Assembly (NCBI GenBank): GCA_964391455.1
Contig: CAYMJQ010000003.1
Location: 12,435-76,434 of the forward strand
Direction: 5' to 3'
Source of the DNA: an uncultured Candidatus Saccharibacteria bacterium
GTDB taxonomy: Bacteria > Patescibacteriota > Minisyncoccia > Phycocordibacterales > DATDWN01
Length of the DNA stretch: 64,000 bases
Positions 15,617 through 55,774 of this stretch are shown piece after piece. The translations under genes and the position numbers were made by a program. The first letter of the stretch is position 1, and every line of letters starts with the position of its first letter. Below the pieces are notes generated by a model. The model made no database searches. It worked only from the letters and a program-made list of their open reading frames with translations, and was not told where the DNA came from.

Positions 15617-15664
15617 ATAATTTAATCCAAGGGTAATATTGGGTTGTAATATATATACAGAAAC

Positions 15665-15700
15665 CGCCCGAAAGCTCGACGGCTCTGCGGGCGGCTTTTA
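15665..15700 (-). terminator. GC-rich hairpin terminator at left edge of tRNA-Asn island
   Basis: ccgcccg / cgggcgg form a 7-bp stem with a 16-nt loop, immediately after the stop of the 15714-16109 ORF. Confidence 0.5.
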
Positions 15701-15713
15701 CTGGTTACCTCTT

Positions 15714-16109
15714 TCAGTCCATTTCCAAATAGTCTGGTAGTGACCTACTATAGATTTCATAAGTAAGTTTAGTACCATCGCCATTGAGGACAATAAAGCA
15801 GACCCAATCGTAGTCCATCTTGCCTATTTCTTCAGCGAGATCACTGAGTCCACCATTACCCCAGAATTCAGGAACTCTAGTGCTTTCCTTCGTCTCTTCA
15901 GTCCACAAACAGAGACGTCTGTCTGTGTTTGTTGCAGTGTCAATGATATATCCCCCATTGAATTCAGTTGCGATAAGACGTCTCGCAAAAGAATGTTCAA
16001 GTTTTGGCTCAAATACAACAATAGCTTTTGCTTTTTGCGAAGAACTTGTTACTCCTGGGTCATCTACAAGTTTTTCTATGTTTACTGAACCAGTTTCAAT
16101 CCAGTACAT
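15714..16109 (-). CDS. hypothetical 131-aa protein (island gene F); weak resemblance to SUKH/Smi1-type immunity-like proteins
   Basis: Starts MYWIETGS... with GGAAGGAG 5 nt upstream. A TTGACA-17-TAATTT promoter lies at 16131-16159. The gene is GC-rich and carries EFWGNGG and LPDYLEM motifs. Confidence 0.5.
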   Translation of the reverse strand: MYWIETGSVNIEKLVDDPGVTSSSQKAKAIVVFEPKLEHSFARRLIATEFNGGYIIDTATNTDRRLCLWTEETKESTRVPEFWGNGGLSDLAEEIGKMDYDWVCFIVLNGDGTKLTYEIYSRSLPDYLEMD

Positions 16110-16130
16110 TTTAACTCCTTCCTGATGCAA

Positions 16131-16159
16131 AAATTAACATTAGAATTAATGTGTGTCAA
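16131..16159 (-). promoter_or_regulatory. promoter of island gene F (TTGACA-17-TAATTT), paralogous to the gene E promoter
   Basis: The minus-strand read is ATTGACACACATTAATTCTAATGTTAATTTTTG. It aligns with ATTGACACGCATTTATTTGTGTGTTAATTTTG upstream of gene E. Confidence 0.5.
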
Positions 16160-16172
16160 TTCACAACGCTCA

Positions 16173-16199
16173 TTGGACAAGTTCAGAACTCTGAATTGG
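16173..16199. repeat. 27-bp palindromic element copy 2 (ttggacaagttcagaactctgaattgg)
   Basis: Inverted-repeat arms TTCAGA/TCTGAA flanked by CCAA/TTGG, lying 13 nt upstream of the gene F -35. A near-identical copy is at 16751-16777. Confidence 0.6.
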
Positions 16200-16249
16200 A
16201 GAAAAACTGAGATAGAGTTTGAAATGATAATGTTTGGTTTTGTGTATAA

Positions 16250-16276
16250 CGAAAGCCGCTCTACAAGAGAGCGGCC
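16250..16276 (-). terminator. terminator after island gene E
   Basis: Minus-strand GGCCGCTCTCTTGTAGAGCGGC + TTTCGTT. Confidence 0.5.
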
Positions 16277-16539
16277 AAGATGTGGGCCTTTTTGTCATCA
16301 AATTCATTGAGTGGAACAATTGAGATTGTGTTCAGCCCAATACGAAGTTCAGAGAAGTCAGTAACCTGTTGTCCGATTTTGTGTATCGGAATTCCAGCTG
16401 TTACGAGTTTCTGTACAACGGCCTGTTGAGCTTCTTTTCTGTTCTCTGATTCGACCAATCCAAGCGAGTATGAGCCTCGTCCTGGGTTTTCAATGCTCAC
16501 AATGAAATGCATTTTTACCTCCAAAAACAAAATTAACAC
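16261..16539 (-). CDS. hypothetical 92-aa protein (island gene E)
   Basis: GGAGG lies 7 nt before the ATG. A TTGACA promoter at 16530-16558 sits 5 nt from att repeat A1. The gene is GC-rich. Confidence 0.5.
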   Translation of the reverse strand: MLILFLEVKMHFIVSIENPGRGSYSLGLVESENRKEAQQAVVQKLVTAGIPIHKIGQQVTDFSELRIGLNTISIVPLNEFDDKKAHILAALL

Positions 16540-16563
16540 ACAAATAAATGCGTGTCAATAAAG

Positions 16564-16579
16564 TGCTCCGGCGGTAGGG
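16564..16579. repeat. direct repeat A1: partial copy of tRNA-Asn 3' end (tgctccggcggtaggg)
   Basis: A 16/16 match to plus-strand 17492-17507 (the tRNA acceptor/T-arm 3' portion). Confidence 0.7.
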
Positions 16580-16712
16580 TGATCTTTTTTAATTTTAAAT
16601 TTTCGTCAAAATTTAAAATTAAAAACGCAGTTTGTCGACAAGCCGTACTCGGCTCGTAAACCGACAAACTGTTCGATCCCTACACGAAAACTTTCAGTTT
16701 TCTCGCCGATAG

Positions 16713-16740
16713 TAAAAAAGACCCTTACGGGTCTTTCTTT
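16713..16740. terminator. bidirectional hairpin terminator (aaaaaagaccc ttac gggtctttcttt)
   Basis: Stem agaccc/gggtct with an A-run on the 5' side and a T-run on the 3' side. Confidence 0.5.
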
Positions 16741-16750
16741 GCTCCGCAAG

Positions 16751-16777
16751 TTGGACGCATTCAGAACTCTGAATTGG
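16751..16777. repeat. 27-bp palindromic element copy 1 (ttggacgcattcagaactctgaattgg)
   Basis: Differs from copy 2 only at 3 central-left positions. Confidence 0.6.
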
Positions 16778-16914
16778 GTTGCTATTAAAAGAGAATTAGA
16801 ACTTTCGGGGATTTTAGGTATATCTTATTTTCAAACTGCTTCAGAACTAGTGTAAAAACAGAATCGCCCAACGAGGTCGGGCGACCTGTTGAGCGATGAT
16901 AGAGAAACGGGAAG

Positions 16915-17265
16915 TTACTTCTTTGCACGGGACGTTCTGGAACGAAAGGACAGTTCTTCCTTGCTGAACTGGATGTGATGGGTGTTTTCAATGATAGTCC
17001 TGCGTTTCGCACCCTTGTCGACATTCCACTGTCGCAATCCTTTGCGACGCCCAACACGAAGCCCTTTGGTTTTCTCGTCGCAATATTTCATCACACACTT
17101 CGCGACGTGTTTTGGAAGTGTGTGCAAACAACTTCCATCACAAGGACCGATGACAATGTGCTCATCTGCCATTCGGTTTACGTAGTTGTAGTGGGAAACG
17201 TGGATTTCACCATTGATACAGAACTGGTCTCCCCATTCTTCACGACTAATCAGAGTTGCTTTCAC
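16915..17265 (-). CDS. hypothetical 116-aa Cys/His-rich protein (island gene G), a possible zinc-finger or HNH-like nuclease fold
   Basis: GTG start with GGGAGG 5 nt upstream. A TTGACT-17-TATTAT promoter at 17294-17322 lies 2 nt from att repeat A2. The protein carries C16, HVSHYN, GPCDGSCLH, KHVAKC, KYC and NTHHI clusters and a basic C-terminal tail. Confidence 0.5.
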   Translation of the reverse strand: MKATLISREEWGDQFCINGEIHVSHYNYVNRMADEHIVIGPCDGSCLHTLPKHVAKCVMKYCDEKTKGLRVGRRKGLRQWNVDKGAKRRTIIENTHHIQFSKEELSFRSRTSRAKK

Positions 17266-17293
17266 TAAACACCTCCCTTCAAATCTAAATTAG

Positions 17294-17347: not shown

Positions 17348-17493
17348 ACTTACAGTTTCAGTACACCTGTTCTGTTTTTTATTTCTAATTGAATAAAAAA
17401 CTATCACAGGTCTTCGATCCCTAACGTAAAAGTCTCCCAGACTTTTACTCCGTCCTTCGCAAATGAAAAATCCCCTTTCGGGGTTTTCATTTG

Positions 17494-17565
17494 CTCCGGC
17501 GGTAGGGATCGAACCTACGACCAATCGATTAACAGTCGATTGCTCTACCACTGAGCTACACCGGA
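17494..17565 (-). tRNA. tRNA-Asn (anticodon GTT)
   Basis: The minus-strand read is TCCGGTGTAGCTCAGTGGTAGAGCAATCGACTGTTAATCGATTGGTCGTAGGTTCGATCCCTACCGCCGGAG. It has a 7-bp acceptor stem, a D-arm AGCTCAGTGGTAGAGC, an anticodon loop CUGUUAA and a T-arm GTAGGTTCGATCCCTAC. CCA is not encoded. Confidence 0.85.
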
Positions 17566-20657: not shown

Positions 20658-21341
20658 ATGCCACAAAAAACTGAGCTTCACCCAGAAGAAGTAGCAAAGT
20701 TGTTTGGTGTACACAAAAGAACCATTTTCAGATGGATAAAAAGGAAACATCTGAAAAATGTAAATGGAAAAGTTCAGATGGATGGTTTGCAAGAAAAACT
20801 ATCTCTCTGGAAAAACAGTGTGCCCAGACACGAAGCCAGAAAAAGACTGAGAGTTAGGGTATGGACCTTGAACACTTGGATCTCTCATGGCTATCTTGAA
20901 ACCGTCTCTGTGATGGGAGAAACAAGGGTGATAACAACTTCTCTGGTGAATGCTCCCCAGAAAAGAATAGGGCTGTCTCTGGACTTGAGACGATTTGTAA
21001 ATTTCAACCAATTGATTGTAATGTTGGACACTTCTTCTCCAACATTAAATAAATATGCAAACATTGAGTTTAAAGTTCAAACCTCAGGAAAACACAAAGT
21101 TGTTACAGAAGAAGAGGCTCACCGTTTAATTGAGCTAAAAAGGAGTTCCTTTTCAACAAAAGAAACCTGCCAGATTCTGGATGTAAACAAAAAACAACTC
21201 AAACAAATGGTAAAAAGTAAGGAACTGGAATTGTTAGTACTTCTTGGAAGAGTAAGGGTAACCAAAAAATCAGTCAGATCTATGGTTACAAAAATTGCCA
21301 GTAGAAAAAAACTGCAAGAGATTGGTCTTGCAAAGACTTGA
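20658..21341 (+). CDS. DNA-binding protein with three tandem excisionase/MerR-like HTH (HTH_17-type) repeats
   Basis: The three repeats are EVAKLFGVHKRTIFRWIKRKHL, VWTLNTWISHGYLETV and ETCQILDVNKKQLKQMVKSKELE. AAGGGG lies before the ATG, and a terminator follows at 21351-21381. Confidence 0.55.
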   Translation: MPQKTELHPEEVAKLFGVHKRTIFRWIKRKHLKNVNGKVQMDGLQEKLSLWKNSVPRHEARKRLRVRVWTLNTWISHGYLETVSVMGETRVITTSLVNAPQKRIGLSLDLRRFVNFNQLIVMLDTSSPTLNKYANIEFKVQTSGKHKVVTEEEAHRLIELKRSSFSTKETCQILDVNKKQLKQMVKSKELELLVLLGRVRVTKKSVRSMVTKIASRKKLQEIGLAKT

Positions 21342-25960: not shown

Positions 25961-25978
25961 TTTTATAAAAAAAACAAA

Positions 25979-26012
25979 GTCTCGAGTTGTCACAACAACT
26001 CGAGACTTTTTG
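25979..26012. terminator. bidirectional terminator (gtctcgagttg / caactcgagac + ttttt)
   Basis: An 11-bp stem. Confidence 0.65.
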
Positions 26013-26023
26013 GATCTTGGGAA

Positions 26024-26329
26024 CTACCTTCTCTCAGCGAGAGAAAGTGGATTGGCAATCCTTTCTCCAGGAAGGATCGTCTCAGGGTGAATCTTTTCGA
26101 CAAGCTCCAGCATAACGCCGACGGTAGCAGTGCCGAGCTCTGGCTCACAGGAAAGAGCGAGGTCTTTCAGAACTTGCTTTTCCAGACGACCAGCATGACC
26201 AGTCGTGACCTCGATGATGTCTTGTTTCGACATTCCAGTTCTTTCTCCGAGAAGAGTCTTGGAACCGACTCTCACTGCCGCTCGGTGAACAAGAACACCG
26301 AACTCTGCAGAAGCAAACCTATTTGTCAT
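26024..26329 (-). CDS. hypothetical GC-rich 101-aa protein with probable HTH (sigma-70 region-4-like) segment
   Basis: Starts MTNRFASAEF... with GGGAGG 4 nt upstream. The HTH-like segment is LGERTGMSKQDIIEVTTGHAGRLEKQ. It lies directly after the atpC terminator and is GC-richer than its neighbours. Confidence 0.5.
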   Translation of the reverse strand: MTNRFASAEFGVLVHRAAVRVGSKTLLGERTGMSKQDIIEVTTGHAGRLEKQVLKDLALSCEPELGTATVGVMLELVEKIHPETILPGERIANPLSLAERR

Positions 26330-26408
26330 CTTGCCTCCCAAAAGGAACAAAAACCCCGACCATCGGGGCTATTAATAATTAAACCTAATCCAAGTGTATT
26401 TTGCAATA

Positions 26409-35993: not shown

Positions 35994-36695
35994 ATGAATA
36001 TAGAAAAATTATCTGTGCCAATCGCAATAGTTATTGCTGGAGCTTTAATAGCCTTTGCTTTTTATTACTCAAACGTACAAAGTGCTAAAGAGACGGCTAG
36101 GGTTCAAACAGAATCACTAAAAAATGCCGATGGAGAAAAAATGAGACCTATAACTGATGAGGATCATATACTAGGAAATCCGAATGCAGAACTTATGTTT
36201 GTGGAGTACTCTGATACAGAATGTCCTTTCTGTAAACAATTTCATTCAACTCTAAAAAGAATGATGGATGAGTATGGTAAAGATGGAAAGGTTGCTTGGG
36301 TTTATAGACATTTCCCCATCGATCAACTCCACAAAAAAGCTCGTAAACAAGCCGAAGCTTCTGAATGTGCAGCAAATCTTGGTGGCAATGCTAAATTCTG
36401 GGAATATATAGACCAGGTATATGCTAGAACAAATTCCAACGATTCTCTTCCGGATTCAGAACTTCCAAGAATAGCTCAAGATATAGGTCTAAATGTTACC
36501 GCTTTCAATGAGTGTTTATCTAGTGGAAAATTTGCAGATAAAGTAGAACAAGATTATCAAAATGCAATAGCATCTGGTGGACGTGGAACTCCACACTCTA
36601 TAATAGTTGCGAGAGATGGAACAAAAGTACTAGTGCAAGGAGCTCAACCTTACGAGAATATAAAAACAATTATAGACGCAATGCTTTTCCAATAA
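35994..36695 (+). CDS. DsbA-like thiol:disulfide oxidoreductase (thioredoxin fold) with N-terminal TM anchor
   Basis: Carries the CPFC active site. Confidence 0.75.
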   Translation: MNIEKLSVPIAIVIAGALIAFAFYYSNVQSAKETARVQTESLKNADGEKMRPITDEDHILGNPNAELMFVEYSDTECPFCKQFHSTLKRMMDEYGKDGKVAWVYRHFPIDQLHKKARKQAEASECAANLGGNAKFWEYIDQVYARTNSNDSLPDSELPRIAQDIGLNVTAFNECLSSGKFADKVEQDYQNAIASGGRGTPHSIIVARDGTKVLVQGAQPYENIKTIIDAMLFQ

Positions 36696-36723
36696 AAGCT
36701 TCTAAAAAATATTTGGAATAAAA

Positions 36724-39627
36724 CTATTTAAAACTGCAGTACTGACAATCTTGGTCTCCACATTTTTTATTTAAAAATTCTCCAGACCAAACAGAGTTAA
36801 CTAAATTAACCACCTCTTTCTCTATATCTTTTAAATCAGAATCTTCTATTGGCAAAACTACTGTAGGACACTTACCACTACTGGTTGGTTTTACAAAAAT
36901 AAGAGCAGGGGTTATCTCCTTGTCTTTATAATTATGGTTATCTTTCAGCAAAAACTTATAGAACACTAACTGTCTAAAATAGTTTCCATCAGACCCTTCT
37001 GTTTCACCTTTTATATTGGCAATACTCTTTGAATCTGTAGTTTTATAATCAAAAATCCTAACTTCCTTTTCGTCGACCAATATAGCATCTAGCTGACCAT
37101 GTAAATTAAAAGCAATGTCTTTGTCTTTGTATTTGGTAACAAATTCTCTTTCTTCCCACTTCTCCACAAAAACCTGTCCAGCAAAAGCAAAATAATCTTC
37201 TAATTCTCTAGCTAAACTAACTGCGTATGATTTTATCTCTTCTCTTACCATTTCTTTTTCAAATTTAGGAAGAAGTGAAGTTTTGAAATAATCAGTTGCA
37301 ACAGAAATAATAGTCTTTTCAATATCTTTTGTTTTTCTTTTCTCTTCTCTCCAAATTAAAGAAAGAGCCTTGTGCATTGCAATACCTCTTTCAGAAGAAA
37401 CACTTGGAGCTTCTGGTATCTTCAAAATACTTTTATAAAAAAATCCTCTAGGGCATTTTATAAAATGATTTAAAGCTGTAACCGAAAGACCTTTTTCCAC
37501 CAAAACTCTTTTGGTGTATTCTACAGATTCTTTTAATCTTAATTCATCATAAAAATTAAGTGATAAATCCAAAGGTCTTTCCTCTACACGTGGAATAGAT
37601 TTTATCTCAACAAATTCTTTGTCCAATTCAGAAACAAAACGAAGCAATGTTAACCCCTTACCACCAAAATCTTCTTCTGGAGCTATAATTTCTATGTGTT
37701 TTTTGGCACGAGTCATCGCCACATAAAACAATCTTCTGGAATCTTTGATTTCATCTAAATTATCTTTTTGAAACGAAAAAACAAAAGAGCTACCACGATT
37801 ATGAGACATCCAGGACTCCTCTGTAACATTAGGCATCAAAACATAATCATACTCCAAACCCTTTGAAGAATGAGCTGTGATAATTTGCACCTTTGAATCA
37901 ATATTCCCACTGCCTATTTTTATAGACCTATTTTCTGCAGTCTTTCTATAATTCAATAATTCTGATATAAGCACATTTGGATTATCTATACCCTGTCTTT
38001 CCGATATATCTTTTGCAAGATCTATGATAGCCCGCCAAACTTCAGCTCCTGTTGGATTTTGCTTTACAAAATAAGAAAGCCCGGAAAGTTCTGAAACTGA
38101 TATAAGAAAGTTAATGACTCCAGACGAATTTGATTCAGTAAAAAGTTTTTTAATTTCAGGTATCTCTTTTTCAACCTCTATATCGCCACTTTTTAACTTA
38201 TTTATAATTTCTACTGATTTTTTAAAATCTAATCCCCACAAACCTCTGGCCACTGTATTAGCTAGGGCTTCTGTATTTGACCTATCATTTATATATTCCA
38301 AAATATCAAAATACAAAACTCCTAAACTGGATTTAAAAATGTTTACACCTCTTTCAGCTGAGGCCTCAACCCCACACCTCTCGCATAAAGACAAAAAGTG
38401 TTCAACTTCTCTATTTTTCCTAACTATTAAAGCAATAGTGGCGTCTTTATCTTCTTTTGTAATTTCTTTAATTCTTTTTATTAAATAATCATCTTGAGAA
38501 AAAACATCTGGAGCCATCAAAACATCAATAGGTCTTTCTTTATCTCTTCCGGTTAATTTAACTCTAAGATCTATATGTTCCCCTTCTTCATAATTATTCT
38601 CAATCATCTTAAAAGTAGCTGAAAGTATTGCCTGATGACTCCTGTAATTACTTTCAAGTTTTACAACTTTCATATCTTTCCATTTGGTTTGAAAAGTTAA
38701 AAAGTTTTTTACAGACGCTCCTTGAAATCTGTATATGGCCTGCTTTTCATCACCCACAATAAAAATATTTGGAGTATCAAAATAATCCACCAGTTTCATA
38801 ACAATAGTATTTTGAGACTCATTGGTATCCTGATGTTCGTCTATATGGACATATTGAAATTTCTCTTGAAGTTCTCGCAAAAGTTGTTCATTTGTATCCA
38901 AAGCATTTAAAAGTTTTATAAGCAGGTCATCAAAATCCAAAAGTCTTTCTTCTTTCTTTTTTTCTTCGTAAATCCTGTAAACTTCTGAAAATAAAATCGT
39001 CTTCTCACATTTTTCTATCTTGCCCAAAGCATCTGCTTTTAGTTTACCTTTGGTGTGACCTCTAGAAGATATACTTTGAGGATCATTTTTTATTCTTTCT
39101 ATTTCTGCTTTGGCAAAATCAGAAATATTCTCTGGAGTTTGATTTTCTTTTTTGGCATCACTTATAGCTTTTAATATTTTAACCAAATAATAATCAGGTT
39201 CTCCAAAAGGCCTAAGGTCTCCGAACTTTTCTGATTTTAAAATATCCCTGATTACATTTTCTGCTTCAATATCTGTTATTTGTTTTGTTCTGAAAAGTTC
39301 TGGGAAATGGTCTGGAAATTCAGAAAATACTGACCCGGCAAAAGAGTGAAAAGTGTGTATCCTAACCTCATCTGCCCGACTTCCAATAATTTCTCTTAAC
39401 TTTTTCTTCATCGATTTAACTCCCGCATCAGTAAATGTAAGGGCTAAAATGGAGCTAGGTGTGGCTTGTGTCTCAAGGAGTATATTTGCTATATGTAAAG
39501 TAAGAATAGTAGTTTTACCCGTTCCAGGGCCGGCTACTACCATAACTGGACTCTCAATAGCATCCACTGCCTCTTTTTGAGCTTTGTTTAGATTTTTATA
39601 TTTTTCTTTAAAAATCGCATCCGACAT
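36724..39627 (-). CDS. UvrD/PcrA-like superfamily-1 helicase fused to C-terminal PD-(D/E)xK (RecB/Cas4-like) nuclease with Cys cluster
   Basis: Carries GPGTGKT Walker A and helicase motifs, then a C-terminal DAILVDEKEVRIFDYKT nuclease motif and CGDQDCQYC. Confidence 0.8.
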   Translation of the reverse strand: MSDAIFKEKYKNLNKAQKEAVDAIESPVMVVAGPGTGKTTILTLHIANILLETQATPSSILALTFTDAGVKSMKKKLREIIGSRADEVRIHTFHSFAGSVFSEFPDHFPELFRTKQITDIEAENVIRDILKSEKFGDLRPFGEPDYYLVKILKAISDAKKENQTPENISDFAKAEIERIKNDPQSISSRGHTKGKLKADALGKIEKCEKTILFSEVYRIYEEKKKEERLLDFDDLLIKLLNALDTNEQLLRELQEKFQYVHIDEHQDTNESQNTIVMKLVDYFDTPNIFIVGDEKQAIYRFQGASVKNFLTFQTKWKDMKVVKLESNYRSHQAILSATFKMIENNYEEGEHIDLRVKLTGRDKERPIDVLMAPDVFSQDDYLIKRIKEITKEDKDATIALIVRKNREVEHFLSLCERCGVEASAERGVNIFKSSLGVLYFDILEYINDRSNTEALANTVARGLWGLDFKKSVEIINKLKSGDIEVEKEIPEIKKLFTESNSSGVINFLISVSELSGLSYFVKQNPTGAEVWRAIIDLAKDISERQGIDNPNVLISELLNYRKTAENRSIKIGSGNIDSKVQIITAHSSKGLEYDYVLMPNVTEESWMSHNRGSSFVFSFQKDNLDEIKDSRRLFYVAMTRAKKHIEIIAPEEDFGGKGLTLLRFVSELDKEFVEIKSIPRVEERPLDLSLNFYDELRLKESVEYTKRVLVEKGLSVTALNHFIKCPRGFFYKSILKIPEAPSVSSERGIAMHKALSLIWREEKRKTKDIEKTIISVATDYFKTSLLPKFEKEMVREEIKSYAVSLARELEDYFAFAGQVFVEKWEEREFVTKYKDKDIAFNLHGQLDAILVDEKEVRIFDYKTTDSKSIANIKGETEGSDGNYFRQLVFYKFLLKDNHNYKDKEITPALIFVKPTSSGKCPTVVLPIEDSDLKDIEKEVVNLVNSVWSGEFLNKKCGDQDCQYCSFK

Positions 39628-39645
39628 AAGATAAGGATAACATTT

Positions 39646-39690
39646 TTTGGATAATAAAAAATCCCGGTTCTCGACTGTTGCCGAAAACCG
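39646..39690 (-). terminator. terminator of GC-rich gene (tcccggtt / aaccggga + T-run)
   Basis: An 8-bp stem; the minus-strand read is followed by TTTTTTATTAT. Confidence 0.6.
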
Positions 39691-39726
39691 GGACCTGTGC
39701 TGGGAAGCAAATACAAGAAGATCAAA

Positions 39727-40383
39727 TCAGATCGCTGAGGCGAATTCCTCCGCAGCCGCTCTCACCTCGTCGGCGATCCGCGTATCTTTCTCAGCCTGTT
39801 CGCGACGCCTCTCTTCTGGCGTCTTTTCAACGAGAAGCTCGACTCTCGCCTTCTGCTTCTTGGAAGCCTTGCCGAGCCTGGCAAGCATGCGGGCATTGGC
39901 ATCCCGCGCCTCCTGAAGTCTGGGAGCTTCCTCGATAGAATCGAGAAGATCCCAGTAGAGACGGCTGAGTTCGTTGAGATCGAACTCGTCGAGCAGCCGA
40001 GTGCTCTCAACCGCCTCCTTGAAGAGATTGAATTTCTTCATGAGGCCGTCATAGATGTCCTGGTCCACGAGCTGGGCCACCATGCGGAGCTTGTTCGGGA
40101 AAAAGTTCTCCACCGAGCGAATGGCGTAGAACTTTTGACTGTTCCGGAGTGAACGAAGTGCCTTCACTGCGCCATTGAAGGCAAACAGGAAGGACATCAC
40201 CCCGAACGCCCGGACTGAATCGAGGTAAAGTATCTTGATCTCATCCTTTACCTTGAAATTCATGAATCGGGCTCGAGTCTTGCCACTGTCACCAGTGGCA
40301 ATCTTTACCTCTGCTAGGAAGGCACGGAAAACACCCTCCACCTCCTGCCGAGTCGGGATCTTCTTCACCTTCTTCTTGTCCAT
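39727..40383 (-). CDS. hypothetical 218-aa protein encoded by a strongly GC-rich gene with its own consensus promoter and terminator
   Basis: Starts MDKKKVKKIPTRQ... with GGGAGG 5 nt upstream. The C-terminal half is an E/R/A-rich coiled coil. Codon usage is unlike its neighbours. Confidence 0.55.
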   Translation of the reverse strand: MDKKKVKKIPTRQEVEGVFRAFLAEVKIATGDSGKTRARFMNFKVKDEIKILYLDSVRAFGVMSFLFAFNGAVKALRSLRNSQKFYAIRSVENFFPNKLRMVAQLVDQDIYDGLMKKFNLFKEAVESTRLLDEFDLNELSRLYWDLLDSIEEAPRLQEARDANARMLARLGKASKKQKARVELLVEKTPEERRREQAEKDTRIADEVRAAAEEFASAI

Positions 40384-40427
40384 TGTCGCCTCCCAGCAAT
40401 ACGCCACGAAATGTGACTAAATTGCTC

Positions 40428-40463
40428 TGTTTTGATACTAGCATATTTATCACTATTTGTCAA
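40428..40463 (-). promoter_or_regulatory. sigma70-consensus promoter TTGACA-17-TAGTAT for the GC-rich gene
   Basis: The minus-strand read is TTGACAaatagtgataaatatgcTAGTAT. The spacer 3' end plus the -10 (ATATGCTAGTAT) nearly matches the 54174 promoter (ATATGCTACTAT). Confidence 0.55.
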
Positions 40464-40547
40464 ATAATTTTTTACTTTTTATATAAAAACCCTTATTTTA
40501 AGCCAAAAAATACATGGTGTCGGAACCGATGCACTAGTTTAGTTAAA

Positions 40548-40590
40548 ATAAAAAAATCATACTTGATCTGGGAAGTATGATTTTTTATTT
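40548..40590. terminator. bidirectional terminator after rpoD (atcatactt / aagtatgat)
   Basis: A 9-bp stem flanked by A- and T-runs. Confidence 0.6.
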
Positions 40591-40721
40591 TAATTCCAAA
40601 CTTTCATAATTTGGTGAAATCCGACGTTGAGAGTTTTAAAATGTAAGGAGCCTTACCAGAAGTAAAGTGACAAGGATTTTGAAACTCGAGAACGAGGAGT
40701 TCGCCGAATTTGGAAGTTTAC

Positions 40722-42038
40722 TTAATAATAATTCCTTAATCTATTTATTTTGTCATGCTGTCGTATCTTCTCATGCGCTTTCGCTTCAATCTGTCTTATA
40801 CGCTCTCTTGTAACTCCAAATTCCTTCCCTACTTCTTCTAGTGTGTGAGTAACTCCATCAACGAGTCCATGACGAAGCTCTAGAATTTTTCTTTCCTTTT
40901 CAGGCAAATCATTTAATATTTCTCTGACCTGATCAGAAATAATTCTTCGTGATGCTTCTTGTTCTGGTGAAAGAATTTTATCATCAGCCAAAAAGTCTCC
41001 TAGTTTACTTTTACTGTCGTCATCTTCACCAATAGGTGCTTCAAGTGAAAGTGTAGACTGATCAATTTTTTCAATAGTGTACACTTTGTCCACTGACAAA
41101 TTCATCTCAACGGCAATTTCCTCTGGCAAAGGATCTCTTCCTAAATCTTGAGAAAGTCGTCTCACAACTTGTTTGTATTTTGCAATAGTTTCCACCATAT
41201 GAACTGGAACACGAATAGTTCTACTCTGGTCAGCAAGAGCACGAGTAATAGCTTGTCTAATCCACCACGTTGCGTATGTAGAAAACTTATAACCCTTTGT
41301 CCAATCAAATTTATCTACTGCTTTAAACAAACCTAAATTCCCCTCTTGAATAAGGTCCAGCAAAGTCAAATCAGCAGAACGAGTAGCATATTTTTTCGCA
41401 ATAGAAACAACAAGTCTTAAGTTTGCACGAGCAAGTAGTGTTTTTGCCTCTTCATCGCCTTGTTCAATTCTCTTTGCCAGTTCTTTCTCCATACCTCCGG
41501 AAATAAGTTGGTATTGACCTATTTCTTTAAGATACATTTGAATTGAATCGTAAGAAGAATCAACCGCTCTTCCATAAGTATATTTTTTAGCAAGCAAATC
41601 ATCATCCGCACCAGCATCCAAAAGTCCTCCACCTTCTAATACATCTACCCCACTAACAGAAAATTTATCATAAAGTTCCTCAAGAAAGAGAATGTCTTCT
41701 TCTATCGTTGGAAATTCTTTTAATATTTCATCATAAGTTACATATCCTCTTTCTTTGCCTTTGTTTAGAAGCCTCATCATTCCATCATTTTGCCTATCTG
41801 CTTTTTTAACAGACTTGGTTGATTTAGGTAAATTTTTAGAAGCCCTGATAGCCAGAGAAGTTTTATTTTTCTTTTTAGCTCTTATGTTTGGAACTGATAT
41901 CTTTTTTGTTTTGTTTTTTTGTTTTTTGTTAGAAGATTTTACTTTTTTACTAATATTTTTAGCCACTTTTTTAGTCTTTACGACTTTATGTGGTTTAGTA
42001 TTCTTTTTTGATTTTGCTTTATTTTTTCTCATAAGCAT
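40722..42038 (-). CDS. rpoD: RNA polymerase sigma-70 factor RpoD with lysine-rich N-terminal extension
   Basis: Regions 1.2 to 4 are recognisable. Confidence 0.9.
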
Positions 42039-43761
42039 TTTTAATAATCTTTATTGTGTTTATTCTTTGTGTTATCCTCTGAACTTCTTCTAAAAATTTT
42101 AATACGTCTCCACTTTCCCTCTTTTGCTCTGCTTTGGTCAAGTTGTTCATAGCAAGCTCTAATTCTTTTTTTAAATATTCTTCTTCTAAAGAAAGTAGTA
42201 ACTCTGAAACATCTTTTTCTAAATTTGTTTTACTATTATAATAACTTTCTGTCTCAAATAATAGTGTCTCCGTGTCCTTTTCAAAAATTTTCTCTAATTC
42301 TTTTAATCTGTCTTTGATTATTTCTTTAACTTTTTCTTCTATTGTTTTTAAATTATCTGGTATTTCGTTTTTATCTTTTTCTTTTTGTCTCTTCCATAAT
42401 ACAAGCCCCCAAATTCTTCTTTCTATTATATCCACCCTATTAGTTGGAGGAGAAGAATTGAGTGGAGATGTGTTATTTACAAAACTAGCAACATTTATTT
42501 TCTTCAAATCTTCCCATAAAGCTTCTTCATTTAAAAATGTTTTTCTTTTTATTACACTTACCCAATGTGATTGATCTGTCTTATCTTTCATGGAAGCTAT
42601 ATAAGGAAGGATTTTTTTTCTTATTTCTATAGTTAAATCTTTTGGATCTAGATTTTTCGACAAAAGTGTGTCTACATAGAAATCAACAATTGATTTAGAA
42701 TTTCTGAAGCATTCTTTTAAAGTTTCTGGGTTTTCTTTTGCTAAATCTGCGGGATCAAAACCTTCTGGCATGGAAACTAATTTCAAATCCATACCTAAAG
42801 CAAGAGCTATTTTTGCAGCCCTATCTGAAGCGCTGAAGCCTGCAGAATCTGAATCAAAAGACATTATTATTCTATCTGAAAATCTTTTCAATTTAATTAA
42901 GTGATTTTCTGTTATAGCTGTACCAGAAGAAGCCACTGAATTGTTTAGCCCAACTTGATGCATCATTACAAGATCCATTTGTCCTTCCACAAGAATAGAG
43001 TAATCTTTCGTCTTAATATTTCTTTTTGCTTTATCTAGGCCAAAAAGAATTTCACTTTTATTGAATAGTTCTGTCTCTGGAGTATTTAGATATTTAGGAG
43101 ACTTTTCATCTGGTATAAGTATTCTCCCTGAAAAACCCACAACTCTTCCGGAAGAATCACTTATAGGAAACATTATCCTACCTCTAAAAACATCGTAATA
43201 AGATGAGCCTAGAGAAATAGAAGAATCTTTTTGTTTTATAAGGCCAGCAGACAACATCTGTTTTTCTGTAACTCCCTTGTCTTTTAGGTAATCATAAAGC
43301 TGTCTCCATTCTAAAGAAGAATAGCCGATTCTAAAATTTTTTATAGATTCATCATTTATTCCCCTACTATATACATAGTTCAATGCCTCTTTATTTCCGG
43401 AAAGATTTCTTTCGTAAAAAAGCACTGCCATCTCTAAAACAGAAAGTAGTTTTTCTTTTTCTGATTTCTCTCCTGATACATAGTTTTGAAGTTCTACTCC
43501 AGCTTTTTCAGCCAACACTTTTAATGACCCCATAAAATCTAAACCTTCGAACTCTTGGACAAAAGTAAAAATATCTCCTTTCGCGTGACACCCAAAACAA
43601 TAATAGGTTCCTCTATCCGGAGACACAAAAAAGGATGGCGTTTTTTCGTTGTGAAAAGGACACCTGCCCTTAAAGTTCCCTCCTGCTTTTTCTAATTTCA
43701 CATAATTAGAAACTAGAGAAACTATGTCTATCTTTGATTTTATTTGATCTACTGATGACAT
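42019..43761 (-). CDS. dnaG: DNA primase
   Basis: Carries the zinc ribbon [11 protein letters not shown], a TOPRIM domain and a C-terminal helical domain. Confidence 0.85.
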
Positions 43762-43888
43762 AAAATGAGTTTAAAAGTTCCAATCTAATAAGTTTTAAAA
43801 TTAAATTCAAAACTTGAACCAAATTTGACTTGAAATACTAAGAGTATTCACAAATTCGAAACAAGAAGTTCGTCAAATTTGTAGACTC

Positions 43889-46800
43889 TTACTGATAACG
43901 TGTTGACTCGTCAAACACAACCGGTCTATCCTCCCTCATCTTCTTTATCATTTCAGATTTAGAACTTCCCTTGAAACCTGTGCCGGCAGGAATAAGTTTT
44001 CCAAGAATAACGTTTTCCATAAGTCCAGCTAATCTATCCGCATTACCTCTTATAGCACTAGATATAAGTATTCTGGTTGTGTGTTGGAAAGAAGCAGCTG
44101 ATAAGAAACTGTGTCTAGATAGTGAGACATCTGTAATACCCATCACCACTGGTTCTGCTGTAGCAGGCTCTTTACCTTCTTCCTTAATTTTTGCATTTTC
44201 TTCGTCTAGCAAATTCGCTTCTACAATATCTCCAGGAACAAAGTATGTATCCCCAGGAGTCTTTATTCTTTTTCTTGAGAACATTTGTCTAACTATAGTT
44301 TCTATGTGTTTTCTAGAAACATTTTCTCCTTGAAGCTCATAAGGTTTATTTATTTCATGAATTATATAATCAATAGTTTTTTCTTTGCCTGCGTATTTGA
44401 ATAATTCATCTATATCTGCAGACCCGTCCGTTATAATATCGCCCTTTTTTACCTCATCTCCAACTTTAACCAATAAAGTTCTGTTGAGAGAAGTGGAATA
44501 ATCTATCCTGTCTTTTGATTTTTTTCTGTCTTCTAGATCTGGAGTTATAGTGATTATCTTTTCTTTATCAGTAACTTTTATTTCTGATATTGTTCCTGAC
44601 ACACTTGCAACTACAGCTGGATTTTTTGGTTTCCTCTTTTCAAATAATTCTTCTACTCTTGGCAAACCAGAAACAATATCTCCAGAAACTGAAGCAGTTC
44701 CTCCGGCATGGAAAGTTCTCATTGTTAATTGAGTTCCTGGTTCACCAATAGCTTGTCCTGCAACAGTCCCAACCGCTTCACCTAATTCAACTACTTTATT
44801 TTTACCTAGATCTGTTCCATAACACTTAACACAAATACCATTAGATGTTTTACATGATAAAGGAGACCTTACAGATACAGAAGTAACTCCTGCCCCTTCT
44901 ATTTTTTGAGCATCCGCTTTTGTTAAGAGATGATCTTTTTTAAACAAAACTGTTCCGTCTGCAAGCTTAACGTCAGAAGCTAAAAATCTTCCTTTTATGT
45001 GTTTTGCAATTGGAGTTTCAATCCCAGAAATTGCGTATTTATCAATCACTACCCCGTCTTTAGTAAGACAATCTTCTTCGGTGATTATAGTATCCTGTGC
45101 CACTACGAACATTTTTCTTGTTAGATATCCGGATTTAGCAGTATTTAGAGCGGTATCAGTAAGACCCTTTCTGGCACCGTGAGTAGTGATGAAATATTCA
45201 AGTGGAGTCAAACCTTCTTTTGAACAAGAAATAATCGGAAATTCAATAGTCTCTCCAGCAGTATTTGTAATAAGACCTTTCATACCAGCCATTTGAGTAA
45301 TATTACCCATTGTTCCTCTAGCTCCTGAAGAAACCATATCAATAACAGAACCGTTTTGAGGCAGTGTTTCAGGCATTAATTTTTCAACTTCAGCTTTAGC
45401 TCCGTGCCAAACTTCAATAGTTTGTCTTAATCTCTCTTCTTTTGATATAAGTCCAGCTTCAAAGTGGCCGACTATCGCTTCAGTTTTTTCTCTTGCTCTT
45501 TTAACAATATCTTCTTTACCTTTAGGAATAATAATGTCATCTAACCCCCAAGTAACCCCAGAGTGAGTAGCATATTTAAAACCGAAAGATTTAATCTTAT
45601 CTATTATAGATGGAATATTCTCTATTCCATATTTTTCAGTTAAATCATCAACCAAGTTTGTAGTTTTCTTTTTATTTATTTCACCATTTATAAAAGGATA
45701 ATCACTTGGTAGAACCGAATTAAATAAAAGTCTCCCAACAGTAGTTTCAAATATCTTGCCTTCAAATTGAGAATACTTTTCTGAATCACTTGGTAGAACT
45801 TTTATTTTTGCCCTAAAAGATACCTCTCCTAGGTCATAAGCCATAATTGCCGTATTAGGACTTTGAAAAACTTTTCCTTCTCCTTTTTCTCCAACGATTT
45901 CTTTTGTCATCCAATAACAACCCAAAATAATATCAAGCATTTTTGCAGACACTGTAGGATCTCCAGAACCTGGTTTCAGAATATTTTTATCTGATGCCAT
46001 TATTTCTTTAGCTTCTAATTGTGCTTCATCAGAAAGAGGTACATGCACTGCCATTTGATCTCCATCGAAGTCCGCATTAAAAGCAGAACACACTAGAGGG
46101 TGTAGTTGAATAGCATCTCCTTCTATCAAGATAGGTTTGAAAGCTTGAATACCTAGTCTGTGCAAAGTAGGTGCACGGTTAAGCAAAACATATCTATCTG
46201 AAATTACTTCTTCAAGTATTGCCCACACCTCTGGTATCCCATCTTCTATGAGTTTACTTGCGCCTTTTATGTTATAAGCAAATTCTCTTTTTAGTAGTTG
46301 TGATATTACAAAAGGTTTAAAAAGCTCTAACGCCATATGTTTTGGGAGACCACATTGGTTTAGATGTAAATCAGGACCCACCACAATAACGGAACGTCCA
46401 GAATAATCCACTCTTTTACCCAAAAGGTTTTGTCTAAAGATACCTCTTTTACCTTTCAAATTATCAGCAAGAGATTTTAATGCTCTTCTCTGTGATTGAT
46501 TTAGTGCAGACTGGCTTGAACCGTGTCTTATAGAATTATCTATAAGAGCATCTACAGCTTCTTGAAGGATTCTCTTTTCATTTCTTAAAATAACATCAGG
46601 TGCACTTATTTCTTTAAGTTTCTTTAAACGATTATTTCTATTTATAACTCTTCTGTACAAATCATTTACATCTGAAGTAGCATATCTACCCCCATCAAGT
46701 GGAACCATAGGACGAAGTGCTGGAGGAATAACAGGTATAGCTGTAAGAAACATCCATTCAGGACGAATTCCAGAATTAATCATTGAACTTATTACACTAA

Positions 46801-54173: not shown

Positions 54174-54202
54174 TTGACATTTAACTTGATATATGCTACT
54201 AT
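54174..54202 (+). promoter_or_regulatory. sigma70-consensus promoter TTGACA-17-TACTAT of GC-rich cassette
   Basis: TTGACAtttaacttgatatatgcTACTAT. AGGAGG lies 7 nt before the ATG at 54223. Confidence 0.5.
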
Positions 54203-54222
54203 TAAGGATAGGAGGATAACAC

Positions 54223-54441
54223 ATGCCGAGTCCGAACTCGACCCGCTCCCGGCTTTGCAACCGGGAGAAAACCCGCGGTTTCCAGACCGCGGGCCACCAC
54301 ACGGTGAATATGTTTGGCGCGACGCCGACCATGTTCACGGACCAGCCGTGGCGGGACCCTCGGGTCCCCCGGCTGAAGAGCTTCAGCTCGGACAGGAGCT
54401 ACCTGCTCCCGTCCGAGTACAAGATCGAGGTGAGCCACTAG
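54223..54441 (+). CDS. 72-codon ORF in extremely GC-rich cassette; a protein-coding versus structured-RNA role is unresolved
   Basis: The product MPSPNSTRSRLCNREKTRGF...YKIEVSH has a strong SD. The region also carries six perfect hairpins, including a 14-bp stem that holds the stop codon in its loop. Confidence 0.35.
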   Translation: MPSPNSTRSRLCNREKTRGFQTAGHHTVNMFGATPTMFTDQPWRDPRVPRLKSFSSDRSYLLPSEYKIEVSH

Positions 54442-54459
54442 GCTCACCTCGATCACGCA

Positions 54460-54498
54460 GGCCGACCCACTTCAGAGAGCGGGTCGGCCTTTTCATTT
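54460..54498 (+). terminator. intrinsic terminator (ggccgaccc ... gggtcggcc + tttt)
   Basis: A 9-bp GC stem with a 12-nt loop and a T-run. It is preceded by a second perfect hairpin at 54423-54454. Confidence 0.65.
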
Positions 54499-55189: not shown

Positions 55190-55774
55190 TCACTCAAGAA
55201 TAGAAAAGTGGTACCAGTCAAAAATCATTATGTGAAAAACTAACTGTGACCACTCCTCTGTTGCTTCAATCAGATTCTGTTCCTCAAAAAACAAAAGTTC
55301 TTGCCTCAACCAATCCAACTCTGATAAAGAAAGTCCAATCTTTCCAATATCAATAGTTGAACCAGTGTTGTGTGTGGATGCCCTATCTCCAGATATCGGA
55401 GCAGCATTTGAATTTACCTTCTGAAGTTCTGCTTGATAGACCGTAGTCCTCACAGCAGAATTGATTTGAAACATTCTACCGAATGCATTGATGAAACGTA
55501 TTGCCAAATCATCAATGTACTTAGCGGTGGTGTATCTTACGAAACGAAAATCTTTTGGGATTCGTTCGTCGATTAAGACAGACTCTGGAATAGGAACAAG
55601 AATCCCGTTTCTTTTCAGCTCTTCCAAGTCGTCCTCATTATGGATTCTTGGAAGATTAAGAATCTTCGCTACTTCATTTTGCTTCTGCAAAGATTCTCTT
55701 GAACCAACAAGACTCTGAGAAAAGACTGTTTGATTAAAAAGAAACAGAAAACAAATGGTAAAAAACACATACAT
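55190..55774 (-). CDS. hypothetical exported protein
   Basis: Has an N-terminal signal-like segment. The promoter (TATAAT), RBS (AGGAGG) and first 9 codons lie inside the 65-bp repeat. Confidence 0.5.
   Translation of the reverse strand: MYVFFTICFLFLFNQTVFSQSLVGSRESLQKQNEVAKILNLPRIHNEDDLEELKRNGILVPIPESVLIDERIPKDFRFVRYTTAKYIDDLAIRFINAFGRMFQINSAVRTTVYQAELQKVNSNAAPISGDRASTHNTGSTIDIGKIGLSLSELDWLRQELLFFEEQNLIEATEEWSQLVFHIMIFDWYHFSILE

Follow-up and report, generated by a model that had tools for sequence, protein, structure and literature searches.

The subject of this study is a gene for a protein of 218 amino acids (aa), which lies on the minus strand between rpoD and a helicase gene in a 64,000-nucleotide stretch of contig CAYMJQ010000003.1 (assembly GCA_964391455.1, from an uncultured Candidatus Saccharibacteria bacterium); this whole stretch is called the window below. 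Comparison with its relatives led us to a reading to which we give a probability of about 0.5: the gene forms an autonomous, hypervariable cassette, its mRNA is compact and gated for translation, and its GC-richness is maintained in place. The family is restricted to bacteria of the candidate phyla radiation (CPR), and GC-richness, a consensus promoter and an mRNA predicted to pair with itself are conserved traits of that family.

In the scheme that we propose, a near-consensus sigma-70 promoter with a TG-extended -10 element would drive a monocistronic transcript of ~770 nt, made up of a small 5′ hairpin, a 5′ arm comprising the Shine-Dalgarno sequence (SD) and the first codons, a GC-rich coding sequence (CDS), an anti-SD arm in the untranslated region at the 3′ end (3′UTR) and a strong terminator hairpin. 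The coding region would fold more stably than its codon content requires. The 3′UTR arm would pair with the 5′ arm, and the finished mRNA would thus be closed and compact, with its ribosome-binding site (RBS) occluded; translation would for the most part need a nascent chain, or an mRNA whose closure has been opened or processed. The body of the mRNA and both its ends would be protected from RNases, giving a long-lived RNA.

RESULTS

GC-rich genes in AT-rich genomes

The sequence-only reading, a first inspection made without database searches, had noted that the gene is markedly richer in GC than its surroundings and had pointed out a TTGACA-17-TAGTAT promoter, a GGGAGG SD and a hairpin terminator; all of these are indeed there, on the minus strand (Table 1). 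The gene has 55% GC (0.545 from ATG to stop codon, and 0.548 for a longer open reading frame (ORF) with a GTG start), spread over the three codon positions as 0.59-0.60, 0.35-0.36 and 0.69 (GC1, GC2 and GC3), and its CDS displays a strong 3-periodicity, carried by GC3. It is the largest GC island of the window, whose overall GC content is 33% (0.334) and whose native genes have a GC3 of around 0.2 (~0.18-0.30).

An exhaustive HMMER scan of 1.84 billion representatives gave 33 matches, ~30 of them full-length (193-241 aa, 24-40% identity), and ORF length is conserved (205-241 aa) in about 30 clusters. DNA was available for 13 independent loci (the window, L002, L006, L008, L017, L021, L022, L023, L024, L026, L031, L032 and L033). 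In 13/13 the family gene has a GC content of 0.55-0.63 and a GC3 of 0.58-0.86, between flanks at 0.33-0.43 GC that consist of housekeeping genes (rpoD, smpB, infC, rnhB, rpmF, ychF, leuS and others); a GC-rich context was found at none of the 13. The best homologue, 40% identical, occupies the same slot between rpoD and the helicase gene in a related AT-rich genome (L002), and members located outside this slot (L006, L008 and L024) are as GC-rich as those inside it. The expression signals recur as well: in 11/11 loci with upstream sequence a TTGACA or TTGACT -35 element is followed, after a spacer of 16-18 nt, by a -10 element of the TAnnnT type, mostly preceded by TG, and a strong SD and a hairpin terminator are present at all family loci. 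Promoter, 5′UTR hairpin, SD arm, anti-SD arm and terminator are homologous in sequence across loci whose proteins are 25-40% identical and, as far as sequence comparison can tell, these non-coding RNA elements appear to be conserved at least as well as the protein. A separate observation concerns the terminator hairpins (GTCCCGaCCGACAAAgGAG...GTCGGTCGGGGCTTTT), which are alike in L006, L008, L022 and L031, at different genomic positions and next to proteins ~25-30% identical.

Because the regulatory elements are homologous between loci with such divergent proteins, the unit is old in the lineage. Synonymous sites are saturated at that divergence and should therefore sit near a GC3 of ~0.2 under the host bias; the values found are 0.6-0.86. 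Exchange among CPR genomes cannot maintain the high GC, since all known hosts are AT-rich, and the occurrence of such values in every AT-rich host thus calls for some force, be it selection or biased conversion, that maintains GC in place. The alternative is that every lineage has recently drawn the gene from an unsampled GC-rich reservoir, which would also have to carry the AT-rich promoter. We infer that GC-richness is a family trait maintained in place and not the fading signature of a recent donor, and that it is most plausibly caused by selection in favour of RNA structure or stability, with effects on synonymous and on some non-synonymous sites. Of the foreign cassette envisaged by the sequence-only reading, there remains a self-contained transcription unit with a foreign-looking composition. 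A simple recent transfer from a GC-rich donor fails to explain the gene, because the relatives keep its position together with its non-native GC: the position is conserved, and the composition is GC-rich instead of native in every relative.

Predicted closure of the transcript

In the window transcript, the SD-containing arm UGCUGGGAGGCGA and the 3′UTR arm UUGCUUCCCAGCA are predicted to form a helix of 13 bp, 2 of which are G-U, with a duplex energy of -23.8 kcal/mol (z -3.0 versus shuffled 3′UTR). Both this helix and the one formed by another 3′UTR arm with codons 2-5 (Table 1) are found in the minimum free energy (MFE) and the centroid structures. When the RBS/3′UTR duplex was calculated for 12 loci, the mean was -18.7 kcal/mol for cognate versus -14.5 kcal/mol for non-cognate combinations (permutation p 0.0005), and z was ≤ -2.4 in 7/12; L033 adds a z of -4.7 (-29 kcal/mol). 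The complementarity is significant in 8/13 loci, and 0/43 native genes taken as controls fell below z -2 or -13.4 kcal/mol in the same test.

The arm sequences vary from allele to allele, with complementarity kept. The pair GCUGGGAGG/CUUCCCAGC belongs to the window, L002 and L021, the pair CCAGGAGGCA/UGCCUCCUGG to L008, L022 and L033, CUGGGAGAU/AUCUCCCAG to L031 and ACCGAACCCGC/GCGGGUUCGGU to L024; UGCUGGGAGG/CUUCCCAGCA is also among the complementary pairs that differ between alleles. Complementarity was judged pair by pair, since helix registers differ between loci. A similar variation is seen at the 5′ end: in L002 and L021, which have homologous 5′UTRs, the AUUUC loop of the 5′-proximal hairpin is conserved and the stem is altered on both sides (ACCGC/GCGGU in L002 and GCCAC/GUGGC in L021).

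Full transcripts were folded for 12 loci, L033 being assessed by the duplex test instead. The MFE structures involve the RBS in the closure in 7/12 (the window, L002, L008, L021, L022, L023 and L031), and the predicted architecture common to most loci consists of a 5′ hairpin, a 5′ arm paired to the 3′UTR and a terminator hairpin. When whole transcripts were dinucleotide-shuffled, the window, L002 and L008 had z values of -13.1, -5.4 and -9.2, respectively, as compared to -0.8 for a native gene with its flanks. The coding region was assessed by a synonymous-codon shuffle, which preserves the protein and the codon usage: the mean z of the family is -2.98 (range -0.2 to -5.1, the window gene being at -2.6), that of 18 native genes is -0.38 (Mann-Whitney p 0.0006 versus family) and that of 12 gene segments of a 70% GC contig is -0.80 (p 0.0026 versus family). 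Since these GC-rich segments average only -0.80, GC content alone does not yield excess structure in coding sequences. Other GC-elevated accessory genes of the related genomes have z ≤ -2 in 7/9 cases, with a mean of -0.24 for the native genes there (p 0.0056).

A variable slot with divergent alleles

A family gene is found between rpoD and the helicase gene in 6 genomes (the window, L002, L021, L022, L023 and L033), and just past the helicase-dsbA pair in L017 and L031. The sequence-only reading had the gene inserted between its neighbours; the slot is a variable site, but it holds the same family in five other related genomes. Relative to the window, the closest of them, L033, has a helicase 81% identical (over 926 aa), an rpoD product 98.7% identical and a family protein at ~25%. 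The corresponding figures are 81% (N-terminal 163 aa) and ~30-32% for L021, where rpoD is not covered, 61%, 94% and 40% for L002, 62.5% (675 aa), 100% (C-terminal 72 aa) and ~22-29% for L022, and 63% (N-terminal 41 aa), 95% (195 aa) and ~25-34% for L023. The L021 and L033 alleles are 32% identical to each other. When the DNA of the window is aligned with that of L033, the flanks and ~80 nt of promoter-proximal sequence, including -35, -10 and TGGCTTAAAATA, are conserved and the transcribed part is strongly diverged; homology stops near the -10 element and resumes past the terminator. The gene thus resembles either a collection of old and highly divergent alleles that replace one another or a single gene that evolves exceptionally fast, and this pattern suggests diversifying or balancing selection, as for proteins engaged in interaction or conflict.

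The motif TGGCTTAAAATA lies ~30 nt upstream of the -35 hexamer, within the ~80 nt of conserved promoter-proximal DNA, and is conserved in three genomes (the window, L002 and L033); it may be an UP-like element, a regulator site or a remnant. The family is absent from L009-L011, whose helicases are 75-76% identical to that of the window, and there the slot holds other GC-elevated genes, for EamA-like membrane proteins and for a protein like low-molecular-weight protein tyrosine phosphatase (LMW-PTP) or ArsC (recognized by eye from an N-terminal CxxxxxR-type motif). Over L009-L011, L002, L022, L023 and L033, the contents of the slot include a methyltransferase and several ORFans; GC is elevated in most of the slot genes, and an excess of mRNA structure is seen in several. 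In L033, an insert of ~390 nt contains an 88-aa ORF with two Cys pairs, possibly zinc-ribbon-like as judged by eye.

The protein family

The 218-aa protein is charged, helical and devoid of a transmembrane (TM) segment, and the family alignment shows the conserved motifs TG..G.R.PRF.GF, QR.Y, LD.DL and AS..YWAL.D.I..AP.EQ..R..NR, followed by a charged C-terminus. Using this alignment, AlphaFold gave a confident all-helical bundle (pLDDT 87, pTM 0.78), with a disordered charged linker at residues 174-196 and a terminal helix at 200-217; the earlier description of a basic N-terminus and a charged, helical C-terminus agrees with this helix and with the Lys-rich N-terminus and charged C-terminus seen here. 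Family proteins have ~36% charged residues and a variable net charge, and they contain more Arg and Ala than native proteins. The product is probably cytoplasmic and forms a highly charged bundle made up entirely of helices. No usable match to the 218-aa protein came from Pfam, NCBIfam, PHROGs or PADLOC, Pfam and PHROGs queried with all 30 members singly gave no consistent family, and comparison with solved structures (PDB) and folds returned only sub-threshold TPR-like or generic helical-bundle similarity and no toxin-like fold. A word-indexed protein search with the 218-aa query found only the query itself, and its profile version only 3 members, low-complexity words having saturated the candidate list. 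The family searches found no relative among viral contigs; the 5′UTR motif had no match in metagenome contigs, and a shorter motif had 4 chance matches in viral contigs. Rfam 15 covariance models gave no match at gathering and E-value thresholds, and nothing relevant was found in the literature on GC-rich genes in Patescibacteria/Parcubacteria.

The cassette at 54174 and other GC-rich units

Only two sites in the window match the strict pattern TTGACA-N14-TGN-TANNAT (chance expectation 0.02), one upstream of the 218-aa gene and one in a cassette at 54174, and it was on the likeness of these two promoters that the sequence-only reading had based a common origin or a common mobilizing vehicle. 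The likeness is real: ATATGCTAGTAT is one base off ATATGCTACTAT (54191-54202), and both cassettes have the TTGACA-17 geometry. However, the ...TATGCTA... that they share is also found in promoters of other alleles elsewhere (L031 AGTATGCTATCAT and L033 AGTATGCTAGGAT), and the bases common to both promoters are consensus elements, namely the -35 consensus, a spacing of 17 nt, a -16 element of the TRTG type and TAnnAT. The TRTG -16 element is a feature of Gram-positive-type promoters. UTR, CDS and terminator of the two cassettes have no alignable similarity and no mobility gene, tRNA or viral relative was found; the common origin or vehicle is not supported. On sequence grounds, the two are the same kind of object (promoter, strong SD, GC-rich structured transcript, terminator) and are not homologous.

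The 54174 cassette has a consensus TG-extended promoter, and its 72-aa ORF has a GC3 of 0.90 and a CDS shuffle z of -3.9. Its predicted transcript folds into eight consecutive near-perfect hairpins (z -12.3), with a 14-bp stem (54424-54453) enclosing the stop codon; two readings are conceivable, a structured RNA with an additional coding role or a coding gene in which pairing makes use of the synonymous sites. The duplex test found no SD/3′UTR complementarity in this cassette. The 72-aa ORF had no homologue in the protein collection, its own sequence included, and Pfam, PHROGs, NCBIfam and PADLOC gave no usable match. A third GC-rich unit (Table 1) encodes a 101-aa ORFan (26329-26024, GC 0.50) and has the closure design of the 218-aa gene: an anti-SD-like TTCCCAAG directly follows the stop codon (26023-26016), and the SD/3′UTR duplex is predicted at -20.3 kcal/mol (z -2.9).

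In 323 kb comprising the window and related loci there are 15 strict consensus promoters, 9 of which precede sequence of ≥ 0.52 GC; this suggests a wider class of such units. Going one step further, and quite tentatively, one may imagine a class of Paceibacteria (CPR) cassettes, exemplified by the 218-aa family, the 54174 cassette and 26024-26329, in which RNA-level selection and not donor ancestry would drive GC3 from ~0.2 to 0.6-0.9, and which would serve hypervariable alleles as hyper-structured, end-to-end-paired, RBS-masked latent messages with a long life, or in RNA roles.

Additional genes of the window deserve mention. Two GC-elevated ORFans are listed in Table 1, the shorter of which (160 aa) is preceded by TTGACA-17-TAATCT (57323-57295) and GGGAGG (57287-57282). 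The stretch 15660-17290, beside tRNA-Asn (17493-17565), is moderately GC-elevated; it contains ORFans at 15714-16130, 16261-16539 and 16915-17265 and two strict TTGACA...TG promoters at 16558 and 16159 (minus strand), and neither Rfam nor Pfam gave a match. Strongly negative CDS z values were obtained for two genes whose composition is near-native, 55190-55774 (minus strand, -5.9) and 20658-21341 (plus strand, -3.7); these may harbour embedded RNA structures.

Gene order and coordinates

The 218-aa gene has rpoB, rpoC, dnaG and rpoD on one side and, on the other, genes for a UvrD-type helicase carrying a PD-(D/E)XK nuclease domain, for a DsbA-like protein and for an RNase H-like protein, in this order. 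The relatives retrieved through the helicase are metagenome-assembled genomes labelled Paceibacteria, Zambryskibacteria, Vogelbacteria or "Saccharibacteria", which points to an ultra-small CPR bacterium of the Parcubacteria type as the source of the window. No mobility gene was found within 36000-45000, and the sole tRNA of the window is the one at 17493-17565; no repeat associated with the 218-aa unit was noted, no dedicated repeat search having been run. A crude consensus scan saw no antisense promoter-like site inside 39650-40470. The rpoD gene (40722-42038, minus strand) encodes a ~90-aa Lys-rich N-terminal extension ahead of the sigma-70 regions; 20 nt at the start of the gene (42019-42038) are shared with the end of dnaG.

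Table 1. Positions, in window numbering, of the elements of the 218-aa unit and of other GC-rich units
Feature	Position	Strand	Remarks
Upstream motif TGGCTTAAAATA	40494..40505	minus	alignable with L002 and L033 upstream regions
-35 hexamer TTGACA	40463-40458	minus	window sequence
Spacer between -35 and -10, AATAGTGATAAATATGC		minus	17 nt; 3′ end ...ATATGC
TG-extended -10 (TGC TAGTAT)	40443-40435	minus	TG 40443-40442; TAGTAT 40440-40435
5′UTR, predicted	40384..40428	minus	45 nt; transcription start site (TSS) ~40428 inferred from promoter geometry
5′-proximal hairpin GUCAC-AUUUC-GUGGC	40403..40417	minus	in MFE and centroid structures
5′ arm UGCUGGGAGGCGA, SD-containing	40386..40398	minus	predicted partner is the 3′UTR anti-SD arm
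SD GGGAGG	40394-40389	minus	
CDS, 218 aa	39727..40383	minus	ATG at 40383; TGA 39729-39727
3′UTR arm GAUCUUCUUGU	39713..39723	minus	predicted to pair with codons 2-5, GACAAGAAGAAGG (40380-40368)
3′UTR anti-SD arm UUGCUUCCCAGCA	39698..39710	minus	complementary to 5′ arm UGCUGGGAGGCGA
Intrinsic terminator	39650..39696	minus	GC hairpin 39696-39659 plus T-tract
54174 cassette	54174..54495	plus	promoter 54174-54202; SD AGGAGG 54210-54215; 72-aa ORF 54223-54441; terminator 54460-54489
Third GC-rich unit	25976-26368	minus	hairpin and T-run 26368-26354; SD GGGAGG 26339-26334; terminator 26010-25976
GC-elevated ORFan	57921-57373	minus	182 aa; GC 0.41; CDS z -4.2; no Pfam match
GC-elevated ORFan	57282-56800	minus	160 aa; GC 0.43; CDS z -3.0; no Pfam match

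DISCUSSION

Other explanations than selection on the RNA have to be weighed. Atypical GC content and codon usage, in a variable slot that in L009-L011 holds other GC-elevated genes, some of them from widespread families, are what one would expect from a recent horizontal acquisition from a GC-rich donor, the promoter having been captured or co-transferred and the RNA features being incidental; CPR bacteria do take up foreign DNA. Such an acquisition is unlikely, although we place it first among the alternatives: 13/13 family loci lie in AT-rich, CPR-type housekeeping contexts and 0 in a GC-rich genome, the nearest homologue, found in the same slot, has an identity of only 40%, mobility genes and viral relatives were not found, and promoter, 5′UTR and 3′ elements are homologous despite a protein identity of 25-40%, at which synonymous sites should have decayed toward AT. 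One could also think of GC-biased gene conversion (gBGC) or a recombination hot spot, where allele swaps combined with a repair bias toward G/C would raise the GC content and RNA structure would have no function. The very divergent alleles between conserved flanks, with apparently sharp homology boundaries, would then be accounted for, as would the GC elevation of unrelated accessory genes in the same slot and the shift in GC1, GC2, Arg/Lys ratio and Ala content, which resembles that under directional pressure. This explanation comes next in our ranking and is improbable too, because it predicts neither structure beyond composition nor allele-specific complementary arms, and because L006, L008 and L024, outside the slot, are equally GC-rich and the AT-rich promoter directly beside the gene is left unconverted; moreover, bacterial gBGC effects as reported are far below a GC3 shift from 0.2 to 0.7-0.86. 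Another possibility is that a latent toxin or defence effector is stored as an inert, hok-like mRNA, of which the closure would be opened by stress, phage attack or 3′ processing. It would explain an SD-occluding 5′-3′ closure, a strong, constitutive-looking promoter, a compact structure and hypervariable alleles typical of conflict genes, and the hok and AapA1 toxin mRNAs have the same closure architecture. We rank it just after the two preceding ones, as having a small chance of being correct: the product is a soluble helical protein of 205-240 aa instead of a small hydrophobic peptide, the crude consensus scan showed neither an antisense promoter nor an antitoxin partner, and a PADLOC match and a toxin-like fold are both lacking.

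Two further explanations appear far less probable. The inverted repeats that flank the CDS might have their role in the DNA, as sites of recombination or cassette exchange by which the CDS is swapped between a fixed promoter and a fixed terminator, and the fact that the arms flank the CDS exactly, as well as the stop of the homology with L033 near -10 and its resumption after the terminator, would suit such a role. It is nevertheless very hard to sustain, given that the arms vary from one allele to the next, whereas a recombinase would call for conserved ones, that the G-U pairs of the helices do not match in DNA, nor on the antisense strand, that the SD lies within the arms, that there is no recombinase nearby and that terminators travel with distant alleles. 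To an equally slight degree we consider that the transcript is mainly an RNA, dual-function or structural, with the ORF being secondary. The z values of -5 to -13 of the transcripts, the apparent conservation of terminator and arms, as high as that of the protein or higher, and the 54174 sister cassette, which is almost all hairpins, go in this direction; the strong 3-periodicity, the full-length ORFs of 205-241 aa kept in ~30 clusters, their conserved residues and confidently predicted fold, and the lack of an Rfam match go in the other.

A few more candidates were considered and rejected. An integron cassette does not fit, there being no attC-like site and no integrase, nor does the target of a diversity-generating retroelement, on the reasoning that divergence affects the whole gene and that a template repeat is lacking, a negative for which no search aimed at repeats was made. 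If translation had been selected for expression, this would not have spared rpoB/C and other core genes, which stay at a GC3 of ~0.2. An assembly chimera is contradicted by the presence of the same units in independent NCBI, JGI and Logan assemblies, and an Obelisk-like RNA element by the fact that the unit is DNA-encoded, with promoter, terminator and chromosomal flanks.

Coming back to the reading that we prefer, that of a cassette with a translation-gated mRNA and GC-richness maintained in place, a number of points weigh against it. The RNA picture is wholly predicted, with an inferred TSS. The duplex test is non-significant in 5/13 loci (L006, L017, L023, L026 and L032); in the full-transcript MFE structures the closure uses other parts of the 5′UTR in L006, L024 and L026, and 5′-3′ closure is absent in L017 and L032. 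It is mostly the UTR hairpins and the closure, and not the coding body, that make the z values of whole transcripts so negative. The CDS values of the family overlap those of the controls, two native genes reaching -3.7 and -5.9, and 2/9 of the other GC-elevated accessory genes are at z ~0. Selection for structure is arrived at by exclusion, and an unsampled GC-rich reservoir, such as a CPR plasmid or phage, or gene conversion at a recombination hot spot could lead to the same composition. Besides, a consensus promoter and an occluded SD seem hard to reconcile if the goal is simply high expression, and no search (Pfam, NCBIfam, PHROGs, PADLOC, PDB) assigns a function to the 218-aa protein.

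How does the unit compare with known systems? In the type I toxin systems hok/sok and AapA1/IsoA1, a strong promoter gives a stable, compact full-length mRNA in which a long-distance 5′-3′ interaction hides the SD. The 218-aa mRNA resembles them by its predicted 5′-3′ fold-back, which would sequester the SD, but its product is ~4-8 times larger, soluble, charged and without a TM segment, and not a hydrophobic peptide of <60 aa; an antisense RNA gene was not detected with the crude consensus promoter scan. A phage moron is a single gene of deviant composition, located between conserved genes and equipped with a promoter and a terminator of its own. The 218-aa unit likewise consists of promoter, gene and terminator, deviates in composition and is present or absent between genes that are adjacent in relatives. 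It differs in that it lies outside a prophage (its neighbours being rpoD, dnaG, rpoBC and the helicase gene) and has no significant relative in PHROGs or viral contigs, and in that its deviant composition is conserved across hosts and does not reflect a donor. With genomic islands it has in common the compositional contrast and the variable slot; however, it is only 0.8 kb long and without integrase or tRNA, and its homologues are known only from AT-rich genomes.

The closest parallels are found among mRNAs whose two UTRs interact. In Staphylococcus aureus icaR, a UCCCCUG motif of the 3′UTR pairs with the SD, which blocks initiation and creates an RNase III site (PMC3868564). In Bacillus subtilis hbs, which has a strong SD and a structured leader, a 14-bp interaction between 5′- and 3′-UTR modulates RNase Y cleavage and couples stability to initiation (PMC5737220). 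In a massively parallel study, anti-SD-like sequences were found to pair with the RBS over distances of hundreds of nucleotides, to promote decay and to block initiation (PMC12697547). A pyrimidine-rich 3′UTR anti-SD sequence complementary to the gene's own SD region, shown in icaR, is predicted in the 218-aa cassette, and helices of 10-15 bp are predicted at the same places in the family cassettes as in icaR and hbs. On the other hand, the family arm lies 15-30 nt past the stop codon and not in a long 3′UTR, its pairing is a prediction, and in the family it comes together with a whole coding region extremely shifted in GC, with a consensus promoter and with hypervariable alleles whose arms differ and are complementary all the same. 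The predicted RNA mechanism resembles that of known 5′/3′-UTR systems; what would be new is that an extreme GC3 is maintained in AT-rich genomes, possibly through selection for mRNA structure.

If this holds true, a large anomaly in GC content and codon usage can be a stable, selected property of a family, which would be a caveat for the detection of horizontal gene transfer from composition. The family would also supply, in CPR bacteria, natural compensatory variants with which 5′/3′ pairing can be tested, and the combination of a GC3 outlier, a TTGACA/TG-extended promoter and 5′/3′ complementarity offers a recipe for finding more units of this kind. More generally, the analysis draws attention to an uncharacterised, hypervariable and probably strongly transcribed protein family in CPR bacteria, whose systems of host interaction and conflict are largely unknown.

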